The position numbers and the translations under genes are program-made. Positions 3,117 through 33,846 of a stretch of 64,000 bases of DNA are shown one piece after another. Each line of letters begins with the position of its first letter. The stretch's first letter is position 1. The DNA comes from Patescibacteria group bacterium. GTDB lineage: Bacteria > Patescibacteriota > Patescibacteriia > Veblenbacterales > UBA10138. The notes under the pieces are model-generated. The model did not search any database and was not told the origin of the DNA. It saw nothing but the letters and a program-made list of their open reading frames with translations. Location of the stretch: NCBI GenBank assembly GCA_018817715.1, contig JAHITT010000001.1, positions 109,781-173,780 on the forward strand, in the 5' to 3' direction.

Positions 3117-3836
3117 ATGTCTATAAAAATTGCCGCTGGCCAAATTGAAGTTGGTGACAATATTGAAAAAAATCTACAAAAAATACTACTAGCCATTACC
3201 ACAGCCGCCGCCCAGCAGGCCGACTACCTTTGCCTACCAGAAATCTGTTTGGTATCTGATGAAAAACTAATACGTAATATTAATAAAGAAATCGAACAAA
3301 TTAAACAAGCTGCCAAAAAATATAAAATAAATGTTATCTTTGGCACTTACCTTAAAATAGACGGCCATATTAGAAATCAATTGTGGGTAATTAACAAAAA
3401 TGGCGAAACTATTCATAAGTACAACAAAAAACACACTTTTTTTACCGAACGCTCCACAGTCAAAGAAGGAAAAAACAATAAAGTATTAACTATAGATAAT
3501 TTAAACTTTGCTGTTATAAACTGCTGGGATTACGCCTATCCGGAAGATATACGAAAACTGGCTCGTGATGGTGCCCAGGTTATTTTTTGTCCTAGCTACC
3601 TAGTATCACATCCTCACACTAAAGAAGTTTTAGATAAAATACCCCAAGTGCGAGCTTTTGATTCTATGTCTTACTTTATTATGGTGGATGCTTTTAATAA
3701 AGAAACTTTTAAACGTAGCAAAATTTGTCATCCGCTTAAAACCCTCTCCAGCCTATCTGATTCGCCGGGTATTATTTACGCTACAATTGAATTAACCGCT
3801 ATTACTAAACTGCGTCAGCGTTTTTTGAATTTATAA
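3117..3836 (+). CDS. carbon-nitrogen hydrolase (nitrilase superfamily)
   Basis: AAGQIEVGDNIEKN..., catalytic Cys in the VINCWDYAYPE context. Size and layout typical of CN hydrolases. Confidence 0.7.
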   Translation: MSIKIAAGQIEVGDNIEKNLQKILLAITTAAAQQADYLCLPEICLVSDEKLIRNINKEIEQIKQAAKKYKINVIFGTYLKIDGHIRNQLWVINKNGETIHKYNKKHTFFTERSTVKEGKNNKVLTIDNLNFAVINCWDYAYPEDIRKLARDGAQVIFCPSYLVSHPHTKEVLDKIPQVRAFDSMSYFIMVDAFNKETFKRSKICHPLKTLSSLSDSPGIIYATIELTAITKLRQRFLNL

Positions 3837-3979
3837 AAAACTATCTAAAAATCCCTTAAAAATATCTTAGGGATTTTTTGTTTTAGGGATAGTAAAAATT
3901 TCGTCTCGTACCCTTCGATTCCTCTTATTTATCCAACTAAAAACAAAACACCCCACCCAAACGGTGAGGTAATTTGTCT

Positions 3980-4391: not shown

Positions 4392-4411
4392 TGGTGGGCC
4401 GAGTAGGATTC
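4392..4411. repeat. exact 20-nt direct repeat of the tRNA-Tyr 3' end (includes CCA), 136 nt downstream of the tRNA
   Basis: tggtgggccgagtaggattc occurs at 4392-4411 and again at 4548-4567 (the 3' end of tRNA-Tyr). Flanking sequence differs. Confidence 0.75.
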
Positions 4412-4547
4412 TCCCTCGCTCCGACTCGGGCACCCGGGCGCTACACACAAAAACCTGCGCTCGCTCGGTTTTTTCTCGCGCCCTTCGAATCCTTTTCCAT
4501 CCCCCCAAATATTCAAAGGTCGACTAATTATCTTTTTATATTCAAAG

Positions 4548-4634
4548 TGGTGGGCCGAGTAGGATTCGAACCTACGAAGGCATAAAGCCAGCAGATTTAC
4601 AGTCTGCCCCGTTTGACCGCTTCGGTACCGACCC
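4548..4634 (-). tRNA. tRNA-Tyr (anticodon GUA), long variable arm, CCA encoded
   Basis: Anticodon stem-loop GCAGA-CTGTAAA-TCTGC, long variable arm, T-loop GGTTCGAATCC, 87 nt. Confidence 0.85.
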
Positions 4635-19068: not shown

Positions 19069-20106
19069 TTATTCAACCGAAATAAAATGTTTAACTAACT
19101 GAATCATTATATCCTTTTGTTTGGGCTGGCTGGAAGCCACCAATAAAGCCAAAGCTACCAAAGTAGTATCGGCTATTTTCCTTTGGCCTTTTTTATTTAG
19201 TAAATAATTATTCCTAGCCAAATATATTATTAACAAAAAAGAAGCGATTCTTTTATTACCATCCACAAAAGGATGATCCTTAATAATTAAATAAAAAAGA
19301 TGAGCTGCTTTATCTTCTAAACTAAAATAAAGTTCCCGGCCAGCATAAGTTTGGTTAACAGCTGCTAAAATACCAACTAAAGAATTACTTTTATCCAAAC
19401 CAAATAAGTCGCTAGCCTGCTTTTTATCAACCAATTGATTCTTTAACTCACTGATAGCCGGCACCGCCTGATCATAGGACAAACGATATTTAATGTTTTG
19501 CAACTCCTTAGCCAAGGCCGGTAAAACACCTTGATCGTAACTGTGAAGCAATAACCAAGACTGAGTATAATCGGTTATAACTTGAAGCAAACCAATCGCC
19601 TCTTCTCTGTCTAAATAACGATTAAGTAAAGTATTTTGTAAAACACTAACCGCTTGCTCTAATTTTTTAAAACTTAAACCAGTTTGGTCTTTAAGACGAT
19701 TTTGATTAAGAGTAAAACCTTGCACTAAATGGTCTTTTAAAACCTTACTGGCCCAAACTCTAAATCTAGTCCCCTGTTTGGAATTAACCCGATAGCCCAC
19801 AGAAATAATGGCATCTAAATTATAATACTCTAAAGCGCGTTTTATCTGACGATTTCCCTCATTTTGAACTGTTGCATATTTGGCAACAGTTGCCGACTTG
19901 TTAAGCTCCTTTTCCTTATAAATATTGGTTAAATGGCGGGAAATTACCGACTTATCCCGATTAAATAAATCGGCCATTTGTTGCAAGGTTAACCAAACCG
20001 TATCTTTATTTAAACGAACTTCTAAAGAAGAAATTTTACCTGTTGGTTGATAAATAATAACTTCACCTCGATTGACTATTGATTTGTTATCTTTACTAGT
20101 GGCCAT
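19069..20106 (-). CDS. RhuM-family N-terminal domain fused to a Fic/Doc domain
   Basis: The N-terminal YNLDAIISVGYRVNSKQGTRFRVWASKVLKDHL is classic RhuM (PF13310). The C-terminal HPFVDGNKRIASFLL is the Fic motif HxFx(D/E)GNxR. Confidence 0.7.
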   Translation of the reverse strand: MATSKDNKSIVNRGEVIIYQPTGKISSLEVRLNKDTVWLTLQQMADLFNRDKSVISRHLTNIYKEKELNKSATVAKYATVQNEGNRQIKRALEYYNLDAIISVGYRVNSKQGTRFRVWASKVLKDHLVQGFTLNQNRLKDQTGLSFKKLEQAVSVLQNTLLNRYLDREEAIGLLQVITDYTQSWLLLHSYDQGVLPALAKELQNIKYRLSYDQAVPAISELKNQLVDKKQASDLFGLDKSNSLVGILAAVNQTYAGRELYFSLEDKAAHLFYLIIKDHPFVDGNKRIASFLLIIYLARNNYLLNKKGQRKIADTTLVALALLVASSQPKQKDIMIQLVKHFISVE

Positions 20107-31035: not shown

Positions 31036-31104
31036 TAATCCCTTGATTATCTAAGAAGGTTCTGCTAAGATACGAAACGCACTTTAGTAACAGATTATAA
31101 ATAG

Positions 31105-31180
31105 GGGTCCATAGCTCAGCTGGTAGAGCAGCGGCCTTTTAAGCCGCGTGTCGTGGGTTCGAGCCCCACTGGACCCACCA
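31105..31180 (+). tRNA. tRNA-Lys (anticodon UUU), CCA encoded
   Basis: GGGTCCATAGCTCAGCTGGTAGAGCAGCGGCCTTTTAAGCCGC...GGTTCGAGCCCCACTGGACCCACCA, anticodon loop CTTTTAA. Confidence 0.85.
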
Positions 31181-31236
31181 TCCCGTCTGACGGGATTTAT
31201 TCGGTCTTACAACTCCATTCAATAGAATGGAGTTTT
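31181..31236 (+). terminator. two consecutive hairpins after tRNA-Lys (cccgtctgacggga; aactccattc-aatag-aatggagttttt)
   Basis: Inverted repeats, the second followed by a T-run. Confidence 0.5.
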
Positions 31237-31360
31237 TGATTATATGGGGATCGAAGGGTACGGATAAAAAGTGAACTGCTTCACTTTTTAGATGACCCCA
31301 GCTCTTTTTGGGAAAAATCGAGCCTTCTTCAAAGGAGAGTGCGAAATTTTGGGAAAAGAG

Positions 31361-31380
31361 GAGCCCCACTGGACCCACCA
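31361..31380. repeat. exact 20-nt direct repeat of the tRNA-Lys 3' end (gagccccactggacccacca), 200 nt downstream
   Basis: Identical to 31161-31180. Flanks differ. att-site-like. Confidence 0.75.
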
Positions 31381-31445
31381 ATACAAAACTGGCCGGGGAA
31401 AATTTTTAAAACCAATTCGTGGGTGGCTCGCGGAACCATTTTTTC

Positions 31446-32060
31446 TTACTCTCTGTCAGTAAACACTATGAGCCGACCGGAACTAGTTTTCTCCGCCTTA
31501 TTCCAAACTCCCGTGCAAGTAATTAGATTAAGATGCGCTTTTCCGTCGCTTGAGTCAAACACATCAGAAGCATCCTCATTTTTGTCATATATCTGAATTT
31601 CGCGGACAACAAAAATAATATTCACCCCTTTTTCATCTTCAACAGATATTTTGTCACCTTTGCGTAGTTTATATAAATTATCAAATACCGCCGGCAGGTC
31701 ATTCTTCCAGCTGTAATGCCCGGCAATAACGGAACTACCACTCTGCCCGGGACGCGGCCCAAGATTAAACCATGCTACTTTAACAGGGTCTTTTGGTACG
31801 TCCATTGCTCCGTCGGATGTAAGACCCACATACTCAATTGGAGCATCAACATTTATACTTGGAATTTTGAGACGCTCTGGTAATCCAACGTTTGCTTGTT
31901 CTAAGTTTGGAATAGTGACGACATTTTCAACAAGCATTGCCGAGCCATTTTGAGTTGAGCTTTTAGGTAAAAAATACAAAAGAAATACGATAAAAAGAGT
32001 TAATCCTGAAAGGATAACTATTGATAATAATGTTCGTTTTGATAAAATTTTTAATTGCAT
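31446..32060 (-). CDS. sortase family transpeptidase
   Basis: N-terminal TM anchor, catalytic TLITCTG (TLxTC) motif and conserved Arg near the C-terminus. Start set at MQLK (32060), downstream of the terminator hairpin of the preceding gene. Confidence 0.7.
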   Translation of the reverse strand: MQLKILSKRTLLSIVILSGLTLFIVFLLYFLPKSSTQNGSAMLVENVVTIPNLEQANVGLPERLKIPSINVDAPIEYVGLTSDGAMDVPKDPVKVAWFNLGPRPGQSGSSVIAGHYSWKNDLPAVFDNLYKLRKGDKISVEDEKGVNIIFVVREIQIYDKNEDASDVFDSSDGKAHLNLITCTGVWNKAEKTSSGRLIVFTDRE

Positions 32061-32082
32061 AAATTTTACAAAAGGTTCATGA

Positions 32083-32125
32083 CCACAAATGCCAGACAAA
32101 AATTTGTCTGGCATTTGCTCATTAG
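32083..32125 (-). terminator. terminator hairpin after the LPXTG protein gene
   Basis: caaatgccagacaaa-...-tttgtctggcatttg inverted repeat. Confidence 0.5.
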
Positions 32126-32143
32126 TTTTTCTCAATGCTTAGA

Positions 32144-33199
32144 CTAAACCGTTTGTTTTCTTCGAACAAAGTAGAAAAAAATTGAGACCGCAAAGACGCC
32201 CGCCAGGATGACGATATTCCAGGGAGTACCTTTCTCGTCAAAACCAATTCCCGTATTTGGTAGTTTTGGAGAGACTACTAGAAGTGGAGGTGTAGGAGTT
32301 ATTGTGGGTGTTGGAGTTGGTGTAGGAGTTATTGTGGGTGTTGGAGTTGGTGTAGGAGTTATTGTGGGTGTTGGAGTTGGTGTAGGAGTTATTGTGGGTG
32401 TTGGAGTTGGTGTAGGAGTTATTGTGGGTGTTGGAGTTGAAACAGTAGGAATCGAAACAATATCAGCATCAAGAGTGACTGCGGTTTGAGCAAGAGCTCT
32501 ACCATTTAGTGTTGCACCAGTGTTTAACACAATTGCTGTTTGATCCAATATATTTCCACTAAAGTTAGAGCCTGTTCCGAGTGTAGTTTGGCCTGCAACC
32601 TGCCAGAATATATTAGAAGCCTGTGCACCACCACTAAGGACAACTTTCACAGAGGAGCTTACAGTAAGAGTTTGTGCTATCTGGAAAATCCAAACATCAT
32701 TTGCGCCACCAGAAAGAGTAACGTCTGTTGGTATTGTTACACCAGTGCTCCATTTATAAAGTCCTGGAGCAAGGGTCATTCCCCCAATGTTTCCTGCTCC
32801 TAATTCAGTAGCCGTCGGATTTATTCTTCCAGCAGCATCTGTATAGGCAGTTTCCATATCATTTATAGCTGTAACCATTTTAGCAGGTGTAGGAGACATA
32901 TAATCAGCAGCATATGCTTTTCCGGTCACTAGAGCTGACGTCGAAAATGTATTCGAAGCATCTATTGTTAACCCAAAACCAGTCATAGCAGTTGCGCTGA
33001 TTGGACTTACCCCAATATCTCCAGTAATTGAGGTGGCTCCAGTGGTTGAAATTCCTGATTTTGTCAAAATAACAAAATCACCCGCTGATCCAAGATTTAC
33101 TGTGGCTGGACCAGCCGCGAATACAGTAATTGCTGAAGTGATAAACATTAAGAAAACAACCAACGTAGTTATTATTGAATTTTTATTAATTTTTTTCAT
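32144..33199 (-). CDS. LPXTG-anchored surface protein with DUF3494 (ice-binding-protein-like beta-helix) domain and (TPTPTPTI)x5 linker
   Basis: Signal peptide. LGSAGDFVILTKSGISTTGATSITGDIGVSPISATAMTGF matches the DUF3494/IBP family. The C-terminus carries LPNTG, a hydrophobic stretch and RRKQTV. Confidence 0.65.
   Translation of the reverse strand: MKKINKNSIITTLVVFLMFITSAITVFAAGPATVNLGSAGDFVILTKSGISTTGATSITGDIGVSPISATAMTGFGLTIDASNTFSTSALVTGKAYAADYMSPTPAKMVTAINDMETAYTDAAGRINPTATELGAGNIGGMTLAPGLYKWSTGVTIPTDVTLSGGANDVWIFQIAQTLTVSSSVKVVLSGGAQASNIFWQVAGQTTLGTGSNFSGNILDQTAIVLNTGATLNGRALAQTAVTLDADIVSIPTVSTPTPTITPTPTPTPTITPTPTPTPTITPTPTPTPTITPTPTPTPTITPTPPLLVVSPKLPNTGIGFDEKGTPWNIVILAGVFAVSIFFYFVRRKQTV
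32285..32442. repeat. tandem repeat, 30-nt unit x ~5 (encodes PTPTPTITPT on the minus strand)
   Basis: gtaggagttattgtgggtgttggagttggt repeated head-to-tail. Confidence 0.85.
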
Positions 33200-33282
33200 A
33201 AATTTTTATAAATGATTATTTTTGATTATTAAGACCTTTCTCGTAACTTACTTATCTTGTGATAGTATTAAACACTTGTTTT

Positions 33283-33477
33283 TTAGATGAAGTCATCGAC
33301 CTTTACATTAAGCGCTTTCGCTATTTTCTTGAGTGTATCGAGTGTTGGGTTCTGGTTCCTGCCGGTTTCAATTTTTACAATCGTATTAAGGGCGACATCG
33401 GCCAATCGCGCTAATTTTTCTTGAGATAACCCTTTGACTTCTCTTAACTTTCTTAACTTTTTAGCGATATTTGACAT
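33283..33477 (-). CDS. XRE-family helix-turn-helix transcriptional regulator (64 aa)
   Basis: LRKLREVKGLSQEKLARLADVALNTIVKIETGRNQNPTLDTLKKIAKALNV. Confidence 0.7.
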   Translation of the reverse strand: MSNIAKKLRKLREVKGLSQEKLARLADVALNTIVKIETGRNQNPTLDTLKKIAKALNVKVDDFI

Positions 33478-33772
33478 AATGCTATTTATAATTAGTGGAT
33501 AAAATATTAACTGTACTACAGTTAAACTATCTTAATACTACACCTATGGTTAAATACTGTCAAGTAGTTAATTTTAATACTATCGATAACTTTACTGTAA
33601 GTTTATTAGGTGGCTATACCACGCACAACTCCATATTTTCTTGCGGTGCATTTTGCTTTGTAAAATACAAATCCCATCGGCGCGAAAAGCGAGTGGTAGT
33701 GGGGCGAAGTGTTCGTCCGTTTCAGAAATTTTTGCTAAAATAGGTTTAAGCGTGGTTGTATAAATATACCAC

Positions 33773-33812
33773 AAAAAAATTACAGTACTTTTAAAGTACT
33801 GTAATTTTTTGT
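33773..33812. terminator. bidirectional rho-independent terminator
   Basis: Perfect palindrome aattacagtacttt-aaagtactgtaatt, flanked by A6 and T6 runs. Confidence 0.65.
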
Positions 33813-33846
33813 TGTAGTGACTTACTTTACAAAATTAAACCTCTTA

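Follow-up and report, generated by a model that had tools for sequence, protein, structure and literature searches.

A structured element with RtT-like architecture probably explains the repeated tRNA 3′ ends in a Patescibacteria genome

Why should the last 20 nucleotides of a tRNA gene recur, letter for letter, a short distance behind that gene? The question is raised by a tRNA-Lys locus in a 64,000-nucleotide stretch of DNA from a Patescibacteria group bacterium (assembly GCA_018817715.1, contig JAHITT010000001.1, positions 109,781 to 173,780), hereafter called the window. The initial annotation of this DNA took the two copies for attL and attR, the attachment (att) sites of an integrated element that had largely been deleted, and proposed as an alternative that the interval might encode a small RNA made together with the tRNA. 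Our analyses indicate that the second copy is probably the 3′ end of a widespread structured element that trails tRNA genes. This element has the architecture of the RtT RNAs of Escherichia coli, is not annotated by Rfam, and is not an integration scar.

The tRNA-Lys(UUU) gene occupies positions 31105-31180 of the plus strand, with its CCA encoded (ARAGORN; 72.5 bits with the Rfam tRNA model). Its last 20 nucleotides, tRNA positions 57-76, read GAGCCCCACTGGACCCACCA. An exact 20-mer search located them at 31161-31180 and, offset by 200 nt, at 31361-31380, and nowhere else in the window, as initially annotated. No third match was present in the 64 kb even when up to 3 mismatches were allowed, and 100 dinucleotide shuffles of the window yielded 0 matches. 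On both flanks the copies diverge exactly at the borders of the 20-mer. The tRNA is followed by a spacer (31181-31243) that contains a small hairpin (31181-31195) and a hairpin resembling an intrinsic terminator with a T run behind it (31211-31234). Besides these two hairpins, two further helices lie between the repeats. The only open reading frames (ORFs) there are purely mechanical (31139-31381, minus strand; 31292-31462, plus strand), in agreement with the earlier description of an interval with hairpins and no ORF.

The two further helices belong to a module of 137 nt (31244-31380, plus strand), which is predicted to fold into an RtT-like three-way junction. In the minimum free energy (MFE) fold, the 5′ strand of the closing helix P1, TGGGGATC (31245-31252), is followed by a GAA junction (31253-31255), helix P2 (31256-31298), a CAG junction (31299-31301), and helix P3 (31302-31360). 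The 3′ strand of P1 (31361-31368) is the start of the 20-nt copy, namely its first 8 nt, and P1 contains a single A.G mismatch. The remaining 12 nt of the copy (31369-31380), corresponding to the acceptor 3′ strand plus ACCA, form a free tail. Another terminator-like hairpin is found 3′ of the module, at 31416-31434 (31416-31444 with its T run).

A similar architecture had been noted at a second tRNA gene of the window, and this was confirmed. The last 20 nt of tRNA-Tyr(GUA) (4548-4634, minus strand; ARAGORN), GAATCCTACTCGGCCCACCA, are found at 4567-4548 and again at 4411-4392, with a period of 156 nt. The Lys and Tyr copies begin at the identical tRNA position, in the T-loop (GA NN CC...). 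The Tyr module (4392-4495, minus strand) is located between tRNA-Tyr and tRNA-Thr(UGU), ends in the 20-nt copy, and belongs to the same subtype as those of a Moranbacteria locus, where it trails tRNA-Lys (L044), and of a Saccharibacteria locus (L047). The initial annotation had overlooked a further shared feature, the motif GGAWTCGAAGGGYRCG. It lies 55-67 nt past the CCA of tRNA-Lys (31247-31262), tRNA-Tyr (4492-4477), and also tRNA-Trp (3922-3907), against a chance expectation of 0.06 matches, and its opening bases are the reverse complement of the T-loop/T-stem portion of the 3′ end of the adjacent tRNA. The trailer of tRNA-Trp (3830-3979, minus strand; motif search, sequence and terminator scan) is a degenerate or partial module, made up of a terminator (3971-3949), the P1 5′ strand with a GAAGGG motif (3922-3907), and one more hairpin.

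We aligned six sequences of the Lys subtype, namely the window module, its counterpart in a related genome (L002), and four loci of other lineages that trail His, Gly, Glu, and Gln tRNAs. RNAalifold returned a three-way junction in which 19 of the 30 pairs have double changes. Paired cells amounted to 92.2% of this alignment compared with 73.5% in shuffles, and none of 500 shuffles matched the observed value; when the partners were slid by 1-3 columns, the proportion was at most 58.6%. The same covariation pattern was found in a subset of 13 Clostridia sequences. A covariance model built from the six sequences, called R1 here, gave 98.5 bits on the Lys module, which is a member of its seed. 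On the Tyr module, which is outside the seed, it gave 40.7 bits (E = 3.6e-9), and in other loci it produced 42 matches at E < 0.01, across subtypes and including extra members of tandem arrays. On the tRNA-Trp trailer, where only a 5′ fragment of the module is left, R1 had no match.

The closing helix involves the tRNA copy itself. Over all loci, P1 pairing exceeded a partner-shuffled control at copy positions 3, 4, 7, and 8 and faded past position 9. In L077, where the T-loop of the tRNA is TTCAAGT, the P1 strand is GGGACTT, so that P1 covaries with tRNA position 57; both sides of the GAA:TTC complementarity are invariant. On the tRNA-sense strand the inner helices contain 13 G.U pairs versus 2 A.C, an excess that lends modest support, from the sequences, to an RNA of the tRNA sense. 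The corresponding numbers for P1, 31 versus 39, are uninformative as to strand. Two other ideas about the pairing were rejected. An antisense action of the motif against the tRNA T-loop fits less well than its role as the P1 5′ strand, and support for pairing ends at copy position 8-9. For an acceptor-like extension of P1 that would mimic a minihelix, position-wise pairing gave no support.

As the same motif at the same place is not expected from two independent deletions, the pattern was sought elsewhere. Contigs representing one genome per species were scanned for GGTTCGANNCC-N11-CCA-N{45,75}-GGNNTCGAAGGG, which retrieved at least 120 loci. Among the matches listed, the motif dinucleotide was complementary to the T-loop dinucleotide in 94 of 120. 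In 60 of 120, the tRNA 3′ end of the same locus was repeated over at least 12 nt within 400 nt, and in 52 of those 60 the repeat was an exact 20-mer. An exact copy was associated with a non-complementary motif at 8 loci. In 87 comparable loci, the Hamming distance between the tRNA end and the best downstream 20-mer was 0 in 44 cases, 1-3 in 12, and at background in about 25; swapping the downstream regions among these loci yielded 0.7 exact matches by chance. In 50 of 56 loci the identity began at T-loop position 56/57, while its right end was variable, and the period ranged from 112 to 328 nt with a median of 165. The matches listed involve at least 17 tRNA isotypes and at least 6 phyla. Judged by record titles, the modules occur in Patescibacteria, Clostridia, Burkholderiales and other Proteobacteria, Acidobacteriota, Bdellovibrionota, and Planctomycetes. 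Cultured carriers include Massilia horti ONC3, Herminiimonas contaminans, Herbaspirillum sp. alder98, Pelomonas caseinilytica, and Dysosmobacter sp.

The order of parts is common to the family and includes both modules of the window. The tRNA with its CCA is followed by a spacer, the P1 5′ strand (xGGNNTC), GAA, P2, a (C/A)GG junction, P3, and the copy. The module is on the strand of the tRNA, a few tens of bases past the tRNA terminator hairpin. P2 starts with GGG and ends with CCC, with variable inner hairpins, and P3 frequently takes the form of a hairpin whose loop is of the CCGCAG type. The P1 3′ strand is supplied by the copy, through its first 7-9 nt, and the discriminator base and CCA complete the 12-nt tail behind the acceptor 3′ strand. 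In the terms that define the R1 family, this amounts to P1-GAA-P2(GGG...CCC)-NGG-P3-P1′ plus the acceptor strand and NCCA of the adjacent tRNA. The shortest members measure 62-76 nt, and a terminator-like hairpin was found within 70 nt past the copy in 28 of 45 loci. Modules of the Clostridia type (e.g., L032, 198-295) have a strongly conserved internal loop in P2, GAGUGAAUGAC ... GUCAGAGC, whose likeness to kink-turn or loop-E types may indicate a protein-binding site.

The same subtypes trail different isotypes, both within genomes and across phyla. Tandem arrays are present in L019 and L087, duplicated spacers were also seen, and Massilia horti (L040) has the succession tRNA-Asp, module, tRNA-Asp, module. 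In a Peribacteria metagenome-assembled genome (MAG; L086, 6750-7250), a single tRNA-Pro has three modules behind it, which belong to two subtypes; each ends in a copy of the tRNA-Pro 3′ end, and the third copy is decayed. This mixed array suggests independent acquisition. A separate observation concerns L047, a Saccharibacteria MAG, in which the tRNA upstream of a module contains a group I intron (RF00028, 90.8 bits) and a LOOT RNA (RF03000) lies nearby (682-797 and 1291-1531).

We then compared the window with its closest counterparts. Beside the window, four related tRNA-Lys loci were recovered, and the module is present in 2 of the 5. In L002, whose neighboring Na+/Ca2+ antiporter is 85% identical, tRNA-Lys is followed by a homologous module, and the copy (GATCCCC...) reproduces that locus's own T-loop variant, GATC; the window has GAGC in both places. 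In L003 (antiporter 84% identical) only a terminator follows tRNA-Lys, without a module. The syntenic L126 has tRNA-Lys, a terminator, and a convergent RNase_T gene that is 80% identical, and neither the module nor the genes found downstream of it in the window; L127 also lacks the module. Flanks could not be aligned between filled and empty sites. A metagenome scan with the 42-nt 5′ part of tRNA-Lys added 2 loci, both module-free, which are too few for an estimate of occupancy. Two observations on these loci stand by themselves. In L003 (4220-4400) the orientation of tRNA-Lys, along with a conserved promoter-like region upstream of it, is reversed with respect to the antiporter and RNase_T genes. 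The Logan contig L001, which assembles the window sequence independently, ends inside the tRNA-Lys gene, at about window position 31141, perhaps because of k-mers repeated among tRNAs or because strains differ at this locus.

The sequences establish the anatomy, the covariation, the distribution, the absence of linked genes, and the variable occupancy; transcription, 3′ trimming, gene conversion, and any cellular role are inferred. Most likely, the module would be transcribed in the sense of the tRNA, either by read-through of a leaky tRNA terminator or from an undetected start, and its 3′ end would be trimmed to CCA as in a tRNA, which fits the annotated ends of the E. coli small RNA RttR. 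This would yield a stable small RNA with the same 3′ tail as its tRNA. Structure conservation and the analogy with RttR favor the alternative offered by the initial annotation. At the DNA level, the 20-nt direct repeats would be substrates for recombination, which would account for the tandem arrays, for clean loss as in L126, and for a copy kept identical to the tRNA at the cost of P1 pairing. Such a cost is seen in the A.G mismatch of the window module and in the eight loci that combine an exact copy with a non-complementary motif. The identity might be maintained through gene conversion, or else through selection acting on pairing with the tRNA 5′ half or gene.

Several points weigh against this interpretation. 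The scan pattern fixed TCGAAGGG and the spacing, so that the sample is biased to one form of the motif. A recognizable copy is missing in about 40% of the family loci, many copies are decayed, and the trailer of tRNA-Trp lacks a copy of that tRNA's 3′ end. A terminator-like hairpin separates the tRNA from the module in 82 of 97 loci, and no sigma-70-like promoter was found for the Lys module in a simple scan; given these signals, with the hairpin in 85% of loci, the module RNA may be rare. In the predicted fold, the 12-nt unpaired tail should be exposed to 3′ exonucleases unless protected. By itself, conservation of the fold cannot tell a functional RNA apart from a structured mobile element, and decayed copies, together with the two subtypes in L086, are typical of selfish, mobile DNA. 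As to the kinship with RtT, the Rfam model of that family (RF00391) found nothing in the window at its gathering score (45 bits) and nothing on 31100-31460 at E ≤ 10. It likewise found nothing on 8 loci of the family at E ≤ 1 or on 8 further loci at the gathering score, and conversely R1 had no match on the E. coli RtT locus. Since neither model recognizes the members of the other family, the modules are RtT-like in architecture, and their homology with RtT is unproven.

The main rival is a selfish, non-autonomous mobile DNA element that inserts at the 3′ part of tRNA genes, which we consider unlikely. Its P1 5′ strand would recognize the T-loop/T-stem, the enzyme would be supplied by a gene elsewhere in the genome, each insertion would make a 20-nt copy of the target in the manner of a long target-site duplication, and the fold would serve mobility rather than the cell. 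The sharing of subtypes by isotypes, within genomes and across phyla, is in line with this proposal, as are the three modules of L086, of two subtypes and each with a copy of the same tRNA-Pro. So are the patchy occupancy in close relatives (2 of 5), the frequency of decayed copies, and the sharp left border at T-loop position 56/57 next to a variable right one. P1 complementarity, moreover, covers only positions 57-64, which are common to many tRNAs, and the isotype-specific tail invariably matches the local tRNA. However, no transposase, recombinase, or reverse transcriptase is linked to the modules in 94 loci, no filled site could be matched to an empty one by alignable flanks, and viral contigs gave 0 matches. 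We know of no mechanism by which a 20-nt duplication and an internal complementary guide would arise together. The shared locus and homologous module of the window and L002 fit vertical descent with gene conversion equally well. The small-RNA and selfish-element views are not mutually exclusive.

The reading of the repeats as attL and attR supposes a tyrosine integrase that crossed over in the T-loop, an interior that was almost entirely deleted, and perhaps related cargo in the genes downstream. Integrases that target the T-loop are expected to leave a block of identity from the T-loop to the CCA, and this is what is observed, with an intact tRNA at the left repeat, as at the att sites of tRNA-targeted integrative elements and of their deletion derivatives, the CIME-type elements. 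Direct repeats of this kind are also common to RtT-type elements and therefore do not discriminate. What lies between the repeats does: a conserved fold and not debris, so the integration-scar reading is not supported. Independent deletions would not leave one covarying junction at two tRNAs of the window and at dozens of tRNAs elsewhere, in many phyla. Unlike att or CIME-type sites, the modules have neither integrase nor cargo, their interior is folded and conserved instead of differing from site to site, and the repeat has a constant left border and a length that is always about 20 nt. No integrase was among the 20 window ORFs scanned against Pfam, in keeping with the initial annotation, and the repeat has no third copy within 3 mismatches. 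Between the repeats of about 94 motif-bearing loci there was no integrase or cargo, and clustering of neighboring genes revealed no recurrent protein family near the modules, the best candidate occurring at 5 of 94 loci. No distant copies bracketing cargo within 8 kb were linked to the motif, and viral contigs contained 0 matches to the tRNA-Lys 20-mer and 0 to the general pattern. We therefore regard an integration scar as highly improbable.

An apparently genuine island offers a comparison. In L087 (613-704 and 3735-4470), tRNA-Ser(gga) is followed by about 3 kb, a displaced 3′ fragment of tRNA-Ser longer than 30 nt, and then at least 4 tandem modules of 182 nt. This looks like an island integrated into a tRNA, upstream of the module array. 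The fragment displaced by this island differs from the module copies in its length of more than 30 nt and in including the T-stem 5′ strand. The relatives of the window were also informative here. The initial annotation had anticipated that the repeat pair might bracket a larger element in some of them, and none was found in the 5 related tRNA-Lys loci, which have the module or nothing. It had also held that invariant occupancy, together with transcription as a stable RNA, would speak for a conserved RNA and against a scar. The outcome was mixed: occupancy does vary (2 of 5), but only the small module is present or absent, never a larger element.

The genes downstream of the second copy had been correctly listed as a sortase, an LPXTG surface protein, an XRE regulator, and an exonuclease. 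Pfam identified the sortase (31446-32135, minus strand), an Ice_binding/LPXTG-anchor protein (32144-33199, minus strand), and an HTH_3 (XRE) regulator (33283-33477, minus strand), with an RNase_T exonuclease and DnaB past the XRE gene. The first three form an islet of 2.4 kb (31446-33477) that is absent from the syntenic L002, L003, and L126, where RNase_T directly trails the tRNA-Lys region. Judging from this comparison, the islet is an insertion in the lineage of the window, and its absence from the syntenic loci counts in favor of the integration reading. The repeat had been placed at its edge; the islet is, however, downstream of the second copy and outside the repeat pair, there is no third 20-mer at its far edge, and no recombinase or flanking repeat was found at it. 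Between the XRE gene and RNase_T, about 370 nt (33480-33846) contain no convincing ORF and have a strong hairpin with a T run at about 33775-33812. Elsewhere in the window, one ORF (19069-20106, minus strand) combines a RhuM domain, of a virulence protein family, with Fic/DOC.

Least credible of all is that the second copy is an alternative 3′ end of the tRNA, with the interval as a giant intron-like T-loop insertion, or an inconsequential local duplication: the copies are identical, so that either can pair, and in the MFE fold of 31105-31400 it is the second one that pairs with the tRNA 5′ half, but the first copy completes a normal tRNA with a terminator next to it, the T-stem strand of the second copy is tied up in P1, no bacterial splicing system for T-loop insertions is known to us, and conservation, covariation, and recurrence across phyla are not expected of a neutral duplication.

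An element with the logic of RtT, a folded module that ends in a copy of its own tRNA's tail, is present behind many tRNA genes of Patescibacteria, Clostridia, Burkholderiales, Acidobacteriota, Bdellovibrionota, and Planctomycetes, and Rfam has no coverage of it. In genome annotation, such repeat pairs at tRNA ends should not be called att sites or island scars. The strict tracking of the tRNA 3′ end points to a recombination or pairing mechanism that would be worth identifying, and a large comparative set, including cultured carriers, now exists for testing RtT-type elements. More tentatively, the modules, perhaps together with RtT, may constitute a single ancient, target-adaptive class specific for tRNA 3′ ends, mobile or regulatory, although we hold this to be doubtful. 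In a mobile version, the P1 strand could act as a T-loop guide, and insertion could copy the last 20 nt of the local tRNA. In a regulatory version, a 3′ tail resembling that of an uncharged tRNA, and matched to the module's own tRNA, could be presented to the translation, stringent-response, or tRNA-repair machinery. Such a class would be an unannotated, multi-phylum structured RNA family whose tracking of tRNA sequence is unmatched in described systems.

How does the element compare with known RNAs? No Rfam family corresponds to it, whether the whole window was searched at gathering scores, the region at E ≤ 10, or 16 family loci, and in the literature we found no earlier description of this module family outside RtT. 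Self-cleaving ribozymes, TnpB/Cas12-type guide RNAs, and IS110 bridge RNAs were considered and dropped: no protein is linked to the modules, P1 occludes the would-be seed, and there is no consensus match. A possible resemblance to the 5′ region of transfer-messenger RNA (GGAUUCGAC) was not used. The small RNA 3′ETS-leuZ of E. coli derives from a tRNA 3′ external transcribed spacer (3′ETS) and is thus also a non-tRNA RNA released from a trailer. Unlike the modules, 3′ETS RNAs are short unstructured sponges that have neither a copy of the tRNA 3′ end nor a conserved junction.

The sX4 RNA of Xanthomonas (RF02223) gave sub-threshold matches of about 40 bits, where the gathering score is 70, in L099 (2062-2245) and L109 (6827-6976). 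These matches, in Herminiimonas and Herbaspirillum, extend from tRNA-Ser over its terminator into the first part of the module. In the Rfam consensus, the CCCCCC of the tRNA is paired with a downstream GGGGGG that is followed by UGAGA, which resembles a P1 5′ strand of the RtT type; by its sequence, the sX4 consensus seems to end in such a strand, GGGGGGUGAGA. The match is carried mostly by tRNA-Ser and stays below threshold, and the body of the module and the copy are not covered.

The closest comparison is with RtT itself, which has been known since 1978-1991, has no established function, and is regarded as a peculiarity of Gammaproteobacteria. A link to the stringent response was reportedly suggested by Bosl and Kersten in 1991. 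In the tyrT-tyrV locus of E. coli K-12, units of 178 bp score 133-137 bits with RF00391, and each has at its end the final 19 nt of tRNA-Tyr, AATCCTTCCCCCACCACCA. In the Rfam structure GGGGAAGGAU pairs with AUCCUUCCCC and the tail CACCACCA is left free. The annotated rttR small RNA starts 7 nt past tyrV and ends at the CCA of the copy. In other Gammaproteobacteria, RtT RNAs have been detected by Northern blotting or RNA sequencing (PMC4986893, PMC3300014). Published work treats RtT as an RNA released from tRNA operon transcripts, and it has been detected beside Asn and Lys tRNAs in Pasteurellaceae and also in Xanthomonas.

The differences between RtT and the modules concern the interior, the distance from the tRNA, and the hosts. 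The E. coli units have a long internal loop and a two-hairpin multiloop, and the modules a plain three-way junction. RtT begins 7 nt past tyrV with no hairpin in between, whereas the modules are mostly located past an intrinsic terminator. RtT hosts are Gammaproteobacteria, in contrast to the Patescibacteria, Clostridia, Burkholderiales, Acidobacteriota, and others that carry the modules. The likenesses are in the overall plan. Like RtT, the Lys and Tyr modules are on the same strand as a tRNA gene and directly downstream of it, and the position of the Tyr module between tRNA-Tyr and tRNA-Thr recalls that of an RtT unit between tyrT and tyrV. Both kinds of element terminate by repeating the final 19-20 nt of the tRNA, CCA included and starting in the T-loop, which in the window takes the form of exact 20-mers. 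In both, the T-loop/T-stem part of the copy pairs with a strand farther upstream to form the closing helix, and a 3′ tail is left, as in the predicted fold of the Lys module. A purine-rich junction follows the P1 5′ strand, GAGAA in RtT and GAA here, and an inner hairpin has a GCA or CCGCAGG-type loop in both. The period is 178 in E. coli and about 110-330 nt here, tandem arrays occur in both, and the alternation of tRNA and unit in E. coli is found again in the tRNA-Asp locus of L040.

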